The position numbers and the translations under genes were made by a program. The notes under the pieces are model-generated. The model searched no databases. It was not told the DNA's origin and saw only the letters and a list, made by a program, of their open reading frames with translations. Positions 23,078 to 25,149 of a stretch of DNA of 64,000 nucleotides are shown here, piece after piece. The stretch lies in sequence record PQ511148.1; one strand, given 5' to 3'. Every line of letters starts with the position of its first letter. The stretch's first letter is position 1. The stretch is from Escherichia phage NHEP10.

Positions 23078-23464
23078 TTATAGATTCGGTTTATATGATT
23101 TAAATGTTTCGAATTCGCCTTTATTCATAAGAGCTTTGAATTCGTCAGGACGCATAGCTTTGTCGTCGATAATCCAATCATATACTGGTTTATGTGTTAG
23201 CAAATTATGGTACTTCAAGCCAATGTTTGCCAAGTTCTGAATAAGACTTGGGAGAATGTCAATTGCTATACGTCCAGGACCTACCGACTTCATACCGCGA
23301 GCAGTGTAAAGCGTTATGGTATGCCCTGCATCATACAGGGCATTAATGGCAGATACCATTTCGACGTCTGGTTTGAAGTTCACGTAATCACGATTGTTAT
23401 TCCACTCTGTTATACAATCATCGACATCAAAACAAAGATTAAGCATGTTTTCTACACGGTGCAT
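23078..23464 (-). CDS. HAD-superfamily phosphatase/phosphomutase-like protein
   Basis: Start at ATG 23464 (TAATG overlap with upstream stop); N-terminal LCFDVDDCI resembles HAD motif I. Confidence 0.5.
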   Translation of the reverse strand: MHRVENMLNLCFDVDDCITEWNNNRDYVNFKPDVEMVSAINALYDAGHTITLYTARGMKSVGPGRIAIDILPSLIQNLANIGLKYHNLLTHKPVYDWIIDDKAMRPDEFKALMNKGEFETFKSYKPNL

Positions 23465-25149
23465 TAGATTCGTTCCCATTGATGAGTGATATCGCCGCCG
23501 ATTGGACGGTAGGAAACACCAGTTTCTTTATCAGTTAGTACCCATTTACCAGGATTTTTTGTAATCAGAGTAGCCGTTACAGGTTCTGCTACGTCGTAAC
23601 TAATAGAGCCGTCCTGAAGTACACGGCCCATGTTACGTAATTGCTTAGTCAGAAGTTCCATACCTTTATAATATGCAGCTACCGCTTTAAGTGGATTATT
23701 CTTGAAATAACCACCTAATGCAATCCAGATAATTGCTACAGCCAAATGATGATATTCATTAAACGAACTCAGCTTTCCATATTTGTAAACTAATGGATTG
23801 ATATTAATAGTCACATTACAAGTTGTTTCGTCAATAGTAAATTGCCCCCAGGTCGGATTAGCGTTGAATTCATCATAACCTGAAACAGCATAAAGCACTT
23901 TAGCTTCATCATACAATTTTGGCCCGTAAATCTTGGTTTCACCAAAATATCCACGAGGGTCGATAAACTTGACTTCGCCGTTATCAGTAATCATAGTATT
24001 ACTGAAGTTCGGGTCGCCATGAATAACAGAGTACTGTCCCTGAGAACGGTTATGATAACGAATAAGGTGTTCTAAAGCTTGTTTCAGCATTGGCTTCAGA
24101 CGCCCAATCTTAGTGTAGTTCACATGTGTGATTTTACCAAATGAATCAATCAATGGTTGAATACTTTCACAACGATCAATAACTTTCGTATAGAATTCTT
24201 TAGTGAAATCACGACGAACAGTTTCAGGACTTACAAAATAAGTGTCTGTGCTGAATTTCAGTGCATCTAAAATTGCATCAACAATTTGTGGACGAGCAAG
24301 ACTCGATTTAGATTTAATATATTCAAATGCCGGCTTACCTTTAATGCGTTCCATTTCAAAGTTATTTTCATTAACAGAAACTAACTGAGGAACTGAATCT
24401 GATTTCACTTTAAGATACCATGAAATCTCATCTTTCTGAAGAGCTCGACCCTGTTCGGTTAACGCGAATTTAGTTACAGTTTCTTCACCAATTTCAACTG
24501 CATTAAAACTACGATTAAGTTCACGAACTTCATGAGCTTTTTCGAGTTTAGGCATATCACCTAAATCAATTAGATTCATAAGCTCTGATTTATTGAATGC
24601 GCCGCTGTAAAGGAATTCTACGAAATCACGTCCTTTGCAGTATTCATGAATTTCCTCATCAGTAGAACCCATATAGAATTCCCAGTCTTTGAACTGATAA
24701 ATTCCTACAACATTACCACCTGTTGAACCTACGTTAGTGATATTTTCACCGTCGAAATTATATCGACATTCGTCACCCTTAACATAGATCGCGTTAACAT
24801 TCCAAGACCATGAACCAAAATCAGGAATAATATCACACCAGTTAACAATTACATTATGGCCGTCTAAATCTTTGTGTAATTTAGCAAGAGCATAAGCAGA
24901 ACCATACGCTTCATCAACTGTACGAATAGTCACATTGAACCCTTCTTGCTCACAATAAGCTCGAACAGTTTCAGCAAATTTTGAATGAACTACTACAATA
25001 ATTTCATCTGCGCCAAGGTCAGAATAAATTGTATACAAATTGCTCAGAATAGTGTCTTGTTTATAGTTAACAAGCACCTTAGGAATATGATGCGTTATTG
25101 GATACAAACGAGTTGCCAGTCCAGCACCAAGAATAACAGCTTTTTTCAT
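23464..25149 (-). CDS. Bifunctional sugar-1-phosphate nucleotidyltransferase / APH-choline-kinase-like sugar kinase
   Basis: 561 aa; N-terminal MKKAVILGAGLATRL (GxGTRL-type); C-terminal VIHGDPNFSNTMITDNGEVKFIDPRGYFG (HGDxxxxN kinase loop). Confidence 0.7.
   Translation of the reverse strand: MKKAVILGAGLATRLYPITHHIPKVLVNYKQDTILSNLYTIYSDLGADEIIVVVHSKFAETVRAYCEQEGFNVTIRTVDEAYGSAYALAKLHKDLDGHNVIVNWCDIIPDFGSWSWNVNAIYVKGDECRYNFDGENITNVGSTGGNVVGIYQFKDWEFYMGSTDEEIHEYCKGRDFVEFLYSGAFNKSELMNLIDLGDMPKLEKAHEVRELNRSFNAVEIGEETVTKFALTEQGRALQKDEISWYLKVKSDSVPQLVSVNENNFEMERIKGKPAFEYIKSKSSLARPQIVDAILDALKFSTDTYFVSPETVRRDFTKEFYTKVIDRCESIQPLIDSFGKITHVNYTKIGRLKPMLKQALEHLIRYHNRSQGQYSVIHGDPNFSNTMITDNGEVKFIDPRGYFGETKIYGPKLYDEAKVLYAVSGYDEFNANPTWGQFTIDETTCNVTININPLVYKYGKLSSFNEYHHLAVAIIWIALGGYFKNNPLKAVAAYYKGMELLTKQLRNMGRVLQDGSISYDVAEPVTATLITKNPGKWVLTDKETGVSYRPIGGDITHQWERI

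Follow-up and report, generated by a model that had tools for sequence, protein, structure and literature searches.

A 64,000-nucleotide stretch of DNA from Escherichia phage NHEP10 (sequence record PQ511148.1), referred to here as the window, contains a gene at positions 23464-25149 that very probably encodes a bifunctional enzyme of the AfhE type, belonging to the pathway by which RB69-like phages modify their DNA with arabinosyl-5-hydroxycytosine. The protein is formed by an N-terminal nucleotidyltransferase domain and a C-terminal kinase domain fused in one polypeptide. The assignment is based on the folds of the two domains and their catalytic residues, on the near-identity of the protein to an enzyme that has been characterised, and on a gene neighbourhood that is conserved. 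The enzyme itself is already known: an orthologue with 96% identity, AfhE of phage HY126, has reportedly been characterised biochemically, and the window provides another near-identical copy.

Identity of the gene

The open reading frame (ORF) has exactly the boundaries given in a preliminary description of the sequence, which left its orientation unstated. It is located on the minus strand, and its translation opens MKKAVILGAGLATRL. The plus-strand translation of the interval 23464-25149 contains many stop codons. The protein is identical to AfhE of phage HY126 (XAN60479.1) at 542 of 562 positions (96.4%) over the full length, including all catalytic residues. The differences comprise 20 substitutions and one indel, none of which affects an invariant residue. 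Sixteen of the substitutions and the sole indel cluster in residues 228-265 (window positions 24355-24468), which belong to the N-lobe of the kinase; the pattern is suggestive of a short recombined patch or of local diversification. The HY126 locus holds only one homologue of the fusion, and its synteny is the same as that of the window.

In phage RB69, the annotated ORF053c and ORF052c are really one gene encoding 561 residues, and they are separate in GenBank because a single-base error was made in sequencing (Thomas et al. 2018, PMC6024577). The window protein and the RB69 protein both have 561 residues and the C-terminus GDITHQWERI, in agreement with the cloning primer from 2018. The window protein is 99.4% identical to RB69ORF052c over 343 residues and about 99% identical to RB69 ORF53_52c overall, and the same protein is present with 100% identity in phage Ec3-ASingh. 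The DNA of the gene is 98-99% identical to that of approximately 150 genomes of Mosigvirus (RB69-like) phages. The window is that of a Mosigvirus with the whole arabinosyl-5-hydroxycytosine DNA-modification cluster. The GC content of 0.37 is shared by the gene, its module, and the whole window, and the comparison of these compositions does not indicate a recent acquisition of the gene.

A role in the synthesis of uridine diphosphate (UDP)-arabinose has been proposed for RB69 ORF53_52c (Thomas et al. 2018, PMC6024577). The modified base of RB69 is arabinosylated 5-hydroxycytosine, and the RB69 protein, designated gp52:53, has been modelled as a nucleotidyltransferase and a kinase (Lee et al., NAR 2026, PMC13326640). 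According to the summary in the same paper of the work of He et al. (Nat Chem Biol 2026), AfhE of HY126 converts D-arabinose-5-phosphate to arabinose-1,5-bisphosphate. The 5-phosphate has then to be removed by AfhF, a Mg-dependent HAD phosphatase that is a separate protein, before the N-terminal domain of AfhE can make UDP-arabinofuranose (He et al. 2026, as cited in PMC13326640).

Two catalytic domains

The N-terminal part of the protein matches the Pfam profile NTP_transferase (PF00483) at residues 3-99 with an E value of 8.5e-10 and a score of 39.1 bits, above the cut-off of 21.2. It carries the GlmU/RmlA-type signature that the preliminary description had recognised (Table 1). The best sequence-profile match of the domain, obtained with the family profile against the PDB, is HddC, a sugar-1-phosphate guanylyltransferase (E 8e-14). 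The HGDxxxxN loop and the IDPRG segment, which had likewise been noted, are found in the C-terminal half. The whole protein matches phrog_4098 from end to end (E 1e-294).

The conservation of residues was evaluated in an alignment of 45 homologues with identities of 29-75% (A1) and in a second alignment of 8 further, more distant homologues with identities of 24-37% (A2). The latter includes chains of four fused domains and proteins from Tenacibaculum, Enterococcus, and Vibrio phages. In all 53 sequences, the nucleotidyltransferase residues G10, R14, K24, D106, D195, and G197 and the kinase residues K227, E241, G378, D379, N384, D397, P398, R399, and G400 are invariant. Residue H377 is invariant among the 8 distant homologues and at least 90% conserved among the 45. 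The basic residues R326, R399, and K417, which are also invariant, may line a pocket for the 5-phosphate. The conservation is not a matter of chance, and both active sites are predicted to be functional.

The AlphaFold2 model calculated with the 45-sequence alignment has a mean predicted local distance difference test (pLDDT) score of 94.1 and a predicted template modelling score of 0.91. In the model, the C-terminal half has a predicted bilobal kinase fold with the catalytic aspartate and the metal-binding asparagine and aspartate in place, so that both the kinase and the nucleotidyltransferase folds suggested in the preliminary description are present. A Foldseek search of the PDB identified the nucleotidyltransferases RmlA, LicC, HddC, and MurU, with E values of about 1e-8, and the kinase APH(2'')-IIa (1.8e-7); LicA is also among the structural matches. 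The BFVD models of RB69ORF052c and RB69ORF053c superpose onto the AlphaFold2 model with TM-scores of 0.99 and 0.96, respectively. Neither the PDB sequence searches nor the Foldseek search of the PDB yielded a near-identical entry that would represent a solved structure of AfhE.

The protein thus has the features of the AfhE family: orthology; an RmlA/LicC-type domain with GxGxR...K and the two acidic residues for metal or substrate; the Lys/Glu pair, HGDxxxxN, and IDPRG of the kinase; and an adjacent phosphatase within a cluster that holds a cytosine-modifying ThyA homologue.

The C-terminal tail (residues 508-561) is present in the homologues from T4-like phages, and missing in a tail-less group of homologues, in the fusions, and in the distant phages (columns 701-768 of A1, and A2). 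In the AlphaFold2 model the tail contains short strands only, with pLDDT values of 81-90. It is conceivable, but unlikely, that the tail is a docking element that holds AfhF on the fusion, so that the bisphosphate would be channelled from the kinase to the phosphatase and on to the nucleotidyltransferase without release into the cell. Docking by the tail and channelling are not addressed in the literature examined.

Gene neighbourhood

The gene order around the fusion is that of RB69, gene for gene: uvsX, the thymidylate-kinase-like gene, gp46:47, gp48, gp49, gp50, gp51, gp52:53, gp54, gp55, and gp43. Nine proteins of the module were compared with their RB69 counterparts and are 96-100% identical. 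In HY126, the neighbours are also the same as in the window: the SIS isomerase, an ORF of 47 residues, AfhE, AfhF, the U32 protein, the ThyA homologue, a glycosyltransferase, and the thymidylate-kinase-like kinase.

The gene upstream of the fusion matches Pfam SIS (E 1e-10), the NCBIfam models KpsF/GutQ (E 2e-32) and KdsD (E 7e-31), and phrog_5670, annotated as arabinose 5-phosphate isomerase, and its product is 100% identical to that of RB69. The downstream gene matches NCBIfam TIGR01689, a capsule-biosynthesis phosphatase (E 3.8e-13), its product is 100% identical to HY126 XAN60478.1, and the HAD motifs FDVDDCIT, LYTAR, and IIDDK are visible in its sequence. The stop codon of the fusion and the start codon of the phosphatase gene share a nucleotide in the sequence TAATG, which suggests that the two genes may be translationally coupled. 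A scan for promoters and terminators was uninformative, with 39 promoter-like sites versus 44 expected by chance.

The cluster is flanked by the T-even replication module, as the preliminary description had indicated, with gp43 DNA polymerase on one side and uvsX and a gp41-like helicase on the downstream side. The surprise expressed there at finding a sugar-activating enzyme in this location was misplaced. The interval between the DNA polymerase gene and uvsX is a plastic region, in which T4 has gene 42 and beta-glucosyltransferase (PMC6024577), and a DNA-modification cluster is therefore to be expected at this place.

Proposed pathway

In the proposed pathway, the SIS isomerase would convert host ribulose-5-phosphate to D-arabinose-5-phosphate. 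The C-terminal kinase domain of the fusion would then use adenosine triphosphate (ATP) to phosphorylate C1, which would give arabinofuranose-1,5-bisphosphate. The 5-phosphate would be taken off by the HAD phosphatase, which is probably translationally coupled, and the N-terminal domain would combine arabinofuranose-1-phosphate with uridine triphosphate (UTP) to form UDP-arabinofuranose. In the fifth step, the phage arabinosyltransferases would load the sugar onto the 5-hydroxycytosine of the DNA, and the genome would be protected from host nucleases. The two activities of the fusion would be the second and fourth steps of a de novo route that starts from the pentose-phosphate pathway, and not consecutive steps of salvage. 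Phosphorylation of C1 with the 5-phosphate still in place probably preserves the furanose form, since a pyranose ring cannot be closed through an O5 that is blocked.

Homologous loci in other phages

Nine phage loci were compared by tblastn. In eight of the nine lineages, the gene next to the fusion encodes a phosphatase. The phosphatase is the homologous HAD protein in HY126, RB69, Acinetobacter phage DLP1, Shewanella phage Thanatos-1, JS98, Klebsiella phage VAC36, and Enterococcus phage 9183. The fusion of Tenacibaculum phage PTm5 is followed immediately by a gene for an unrelated histidine phosphatase of the family His_Phos_1 (9571-10275 of locus L012; E 9e-23), and then by a ThyA homologue. 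The phosphatase step of PTm5 is a non-homologous replacement, with retention of the function and exchange of the protein family. The locus of the Vibrio phage is the sole one of the nine in which an adjacent phosphatase was not seen. In a metagenomic contig resembling a jumbo phage, the genes for SIS, GT2, the fusion, HAD, and the ThyA homologue are consecutive.

The association is closer still in single chains of approximately 890-955 residues, in which HAD, SIS, nucleotidyltransferase, and kinase domains are combined with all catalytic residues intact. The adjacent phosphatases and the four-domain chains support a fusion that works with a phosphatase and a phosphosugar, and do not support salvage of a free sugar by one enzyme.

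Several further observations concern these loci. The contigs with the four-domain protein P0084 (gene 8001-10781; L002-L005) also encode MutS carrying an HNH domain, Rpb2, Rpb10, and an autophagy-related domain, and look like those of a giant virus of eukaryotes. Another four-domain protein, P0117 (L016-L017), is encoded next to a second paralogue, sugar epimerases, and GT2, and the homologue P0091 comes from a eukaryotic transcriptome. Thanatos-1, JS98, and VAC36 (L008-L010) all have the fusion, the HAD phosphatase, the ThyA homologue, and a glycosyltransferase. A SIS isomerase was not found in the 8 kilobases around the fusion to which the search in these three phages was confined; they may use host KdsD or GutQ to supply arabinose-5-phosphate, or encode the isomerase elsewhere. 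Across genera (L007-L010), the identity of the fusion (42-57%) is lower than that of the HAD phosphatase (59-66%), the ThyA homologue (70-80%), and the U32 protein (79-86%). A changed sugar specificity or a gene replacement may account for the faster divergence of the fusion.

Alternative interpretations

Several points weigh against the assignment as an AfhE-type enzyme that produces UDP-arabinofuranose via the bisphosphate. The kinase half scores below every Pfam cut-off, so that of the two Pfam domains expected in the preliminary description NTP_transferase was recovered and APH (PF01636; 15.2 bits versus a cut-off of 23.2) was not. The profiles Fructosamin_kin, EcKL, RIO1, and APH give sub-threshold matches, all to the same stretch around the catalytic loop. 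Searches of PDB sequences with the single sequence and with the family profile retrieved nucleotidyltransferases only, and no significant kinase (best RIO2, E 0.08). The use of UTP as the nucleotide is not evident from the sequence. The homologue in Shewanella phage Thanatos, TH1_060, which is 54% identical and essential for phage growth, has no pyrophosphorylase activity on xylose-1-phosphate with any nucleoside triphosphate (PMC12838424). The literature is the source of the substrates and of the sequence of steps; the results of He et al. are known here through the summary in PMC13326640, and Table 1 of that paper retains an earlier scheme, in which the phosphatase acts first and the substrate of the kinase is free arabinose. 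The kinase assignment is made because of the motifs, the predicted fold, and the homologues P0082 and P0056 (35-42% identity), which pass the APH cut-off with 28.6 and 25.6 bits, respectively. The negative result with xylose-1-phosphate is compatible with a strict specificity for arabinofuranose.

The preliminary description had proposed that the fusion turns a free sugar directly into a nucleotide sugar. The fusion and the nucleotide-sugar end product are upheld; direct salvage of a free sugar is not, in view of the phosphatase neighbours and the summary in PMC13326640. For an enzyme acting alone on an exogenous or host pentose or hexose, the architecture would resemble that of FKP, AmgK/MurU, and NahK, and LicC, LicA, and MurU are among the structural matches. 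However, such an enzyme would have no use for the phosphatase that adjoins the fusion in eight of nine phage lineages, once as a non-homologous replacement, nor for the HAD and SIS domains of the natural four-domain fusions, and the substrate reported for AfhE in the summary of He et al. (PMC13326640) is arabinose-5-phosphate; this form of salvage is highly improbable. The closest workable form of the idea is that the HAD phosphatase first converts arabinose-5-phosphate to free D-arabinose, on which the anomeric kinase acts to pass its product straight to the N-terminal domain. In AmgK/MurU and LicA/LicC the kinase product is likewise handed directly to the transferase, and the joint presence of an isomerase and a phosphatase is consistent with either order. 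The labels in Table 1 of PMC13326640 agree with this sequence of events: the C-terminal domain "phosphorylates Ara to Araf1p" and gp51 "dephosphorylates Araf5p to Ara". The gene neighbourhood by itself leaves the order of kinase and phosphatase unfixed, and the order adopted here comes from the text of the same paper, in which, with reference to He et al. 2026, AfhE is described as a kinase of arabinose-5-phosphate and the 1,5-bisphosphate is given as the substrate of AfhF. Free D-arabinose is, on the grounds of carbohydrate chemistry, expected to be mostly pyranose, but the sugar found on the DNA is arabinofuranose. The analogous heptose pathway also runs in the order isomerase, kinase, phosphatase, nucleotidyltransferase. 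The phosphatase-first order is therefore considered improbable.

Two other functions have a probability that is close to negligible. An enzyme like LicC/LicA could activate a phospho-alcohol to give, for example, cytidine diphosphate (CDP)-choline or CDP-ethanolamine. However, the identity of the window protein to those enzymes is only 11-21%, the top sequence-profile match HddC acts on a sugar-1-phosphate, and the neighbours encode a sugar-phosphate isomerase, glycosyltransferases, and a ThyA homologue that hydroxylates cytosine; moreover, the DNA of RB69 bears arabinose and no choline (PMC13326640, PMC6024577). It is just as hard to credit that the N-terminal domain is a GT-A-like DNA glycosyltransferase with an attached phosphotransferase. 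CDD placed the N-terminus in the superfamily "glycosyltransferase family A" (PMC6024577, PMC12838424), and TH1_060 is still a candidate glycosyltransferase for the authors of the Thanatos study (PMC12838424). However, GxGxR...K is invariant and all the top structural matches of the domain are nucleotidyltransferases, TH1_060 moved no sugar to DNA, deoxycytidine monophosphate (dCMP), deoxycytidine triphosphate, or cytosine in vitro (PMC12838424), and the cluster encodes dedicated GT-B arabinosyltransferases (PMC13326640). The AfhE-type enzyme that cooperates with a phosphatase is the preferred interpretation.

Features of the cluster

The coordinates of the gene, its domains and motifs, and the neighbouring genes are listed in Table 1.

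Table 1. Positions of the AfhE-type gene, its parts, and neighbouring genes in the window
Feature	Position	Strand	Description
AfhE-type bifunctional enzyme gene	23464..25149	minus	Intact ORF of 561 residues, ATG start, TAA stop; orthologue of HY126 AfhE and RB69 ORF53_52c (gp52:53)
Shine-Dalgarno sequence GAGGA	25157..25161	minus	7 nucleotides 5' of the ATG of the AfhE-type gene; read from the sequence
Nucleotidyltransferase signature GAGLATRLYPITHHIPK (GxGxR...K)	25078..25128	minus	Residues 8-24; G10, R14, and K24 invariant
Catalytic loop HGDPNFSN (Brenner motif HxDxxxxN)	23998..24021	minus	Residues 377-384
IDPRG, segment with the DFG-equivalent metal-binding Asp	23950..23964	minus	Residues 396-400; family hallmark IDPRGYFG
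N-terminal sugar-1-phosphate nucleotidyltransferase domain	24535..25149	minus	Residues 1 to ~205; proposed arabinofuranose-1-phosphate + UTP to UDP-arabinofuranose
Protein-kinase-like (APH/choline-kinase-type) domain	23629..24522	minus	Residues ~210-507; proposed arabinose-5-phosphate 1-kinase
C-terminal tail	23467..23628	minus	~54 residues, 508-561
gp43 DNA polymerase	26007-28718		Flank of the AfhE cluster
SIS-domain arabinose-5-phosphate isomerase, KdsD/GutQ-type	25331..25966	minus	Just upstream of the fusion; RB69 gp55 orthologue; predicted ribulose-5-phosphate to arabinose-5-phosphate
HAD-type phosphatase	23078..23464	minus	Just downstream of the fusion; 128 residues; AfhF / RB69 gp51 orthologue; predicted arabinose-1,5-bisphosphate to arabinose-1-phosphate
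Thymidylate-synthase homologue, 5-hydroxy-dCMP synthase (acceptor base)	20867..21583	minus	RB69 gp48 orthologue (99.6% identical); Pfam Thymidylat_synt E 2.4e-15
Putative DNA arabinosyltransferase 1	19968..20867	minus	RB69 gp46:47 orthologue; UDP-arabinofuranose consumer; 97% identical to RB69p047
Thymidylate-kinase-like nucleotide kinase	19419..19967	minus	RB69 gp45 orthologue; phrog_761 E 6e-45; 98.9% identical to RB69p045
Peptidase-U32-family protein	21861..23030	minus	RB69 gp50 orthologue, cluster member; Pfam Peptidase_U32 E 6.4e-11

The thymidylate synthase (ThyA) homologue carries RSQN at residues 183-186, which, by a manual alignment to E. coli ThyA, probably corresponds to the D169N signature. 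This signature has been proposed as diagnostic of 5-hydroxy-dCMP synthases (Lee et al., PMC13326640), and the RB69 homologue, gp48, has been shown experimentally to make 5-hydroxy-dCMP (Lee et al. 2026, PMC13326640). The consumer of UDP-arabinofuranose may be the putative arabinosyltransferase 1, which has no match in Pfam; its RB69 orthologue is assigned this function in Table 1 of PMC13326640.

A very hydrophobic ORF of 47 residues (25191-25334, minus strand) lies between the isomerase gene and the fusion, and its start codon overlaps the stop codon of the isomerase gene in the sequence ATGA. The ORF is a member of the conserved phrog_3610, and a small JS98 ORF near imm shares 55% identity with it. 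Between the ThyA homologue and the U32 gene is an ORF of 79 residues (21625-21864, minus strand), which corresponds to RB69 gp49 and phrog_8601. It has no domain match and was found elsewhere among the nine loci only in RB69 and HY126, both of which are Mosigvirus.

U32 proteins include oxygen-independent hydroxylases, such as RlhA, which produces 5-hydroxycytidine in ribosomal RNA, TrhP, and UbiU/UbiV. The U32 protein of the cluster might provide an anaerobic route to 5-hydroxycytosine that complements the O2-dependent flavin ThyA homologue. A literature search did not find a paper that ties U32, 5-hydroxycytosine, and phage together, and the protein has been entered merely as a "sugar or heterocycle reductase" (Lee et al., PMC13326640). 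A sequence match to the U32 protein was not found in the PDB. The protein is 79-86% identical in the Shewanella and Klebsiella phages, versus 43-54% for the fusion. Thirteen of its cysteines are conserved in the orthologues from Thanatos (Shewanella) and VAC36 (Klebsiella), including C195-x10-C206-x5-C212 and C343-x4-C348-x3-C352-x2-C355.

Annotation and significance

The practical value of the assignment is in annotation, since the names of the fusion and of its phosphatase partner in GenBank need correcting. Entries there label the fusion variously as "hypothetical", "guanylyltransferase", "mannose-1-phosphate guanyltransferase", or "bifunctional protein GlmU". For the HAD phosphatase, the names in use are "phosphoheptose isomerase" and "polynucleotide kinase", and its PHROGs family, phrog_1238, is also labelled "phosphoheptose isomerase". 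The GlmU annotation was rejected, because the second domain of GlmU is a left-handed beta-helix acetyltransferase, whereas here it is a kinase; the NCBIfam glmU models cover only residues 3-106, with scores far below the cut-offs.

UDP-arabinofuranose is not a normal metabolite of E. coli. The phage must therefore bring its own four-step route, in which the enzyme performs two steps. With arabinosyl-5-hydroxycytosine in its DNA, the phage is protected against restriction enzymes and Cas nucleases, as published for RB69 and HY126. This protection bears on the design of phage therapy and on how DNA of this kind is handled in the laboratory.

Comparison with known systems

In the routes to nucleotide-activated heptose (the adenosine or guanosine diphosphate forms), the SIS isomerase GmhA, the kinase HldE or HddA, the HAD phosphatase GmhB, and the nucleotidyltransferase HldE-C or HddC act in succession. 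The logic of the four steps, which comprise a ketose-phosphate isomerase, an anomeric kinase that makes a bisphosphate, a phosphatase, and a nucleotidyltransferase, is the same as that proposed for the phage cluster. The superfamilies of the isomerase and the phosphatase are shared with the phage genes, and the kinase and transferase of E. coli HldE are likewise fused. However, the phage kinase has a protein-kinase-like/APH fold, whereas that of HldE belongs to PfkB and that of HddA to GHMP. The HldE transferase is of the cytidylyltransferase type, in contrast to the RmlA/GlmU-type N-terminal domain of the phage protein, and the sugar is a heptose instead of a pentofuranose. The HldE-type domains PfkB and CTP_transf_like were not matched in Pfam or NCBIfam, and structures of the ribokinase and cytidylyltransferase-like types are absent among the top matches listed. 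By its domain families, the fusion is an analogue of HldE and not its homologue.

The two folds of the phage fusion are the same as those of LicC and LicA of Streptococcus pneumoniae and of AmgK and MurU, but in those systems they are separate proteins. The product of the kinase goes directly to the transferase, without a phosphatase step, and the substrates are choline or N-acetylmuramic acid. The phage enzyme is only 11-21% identical to these proteins.

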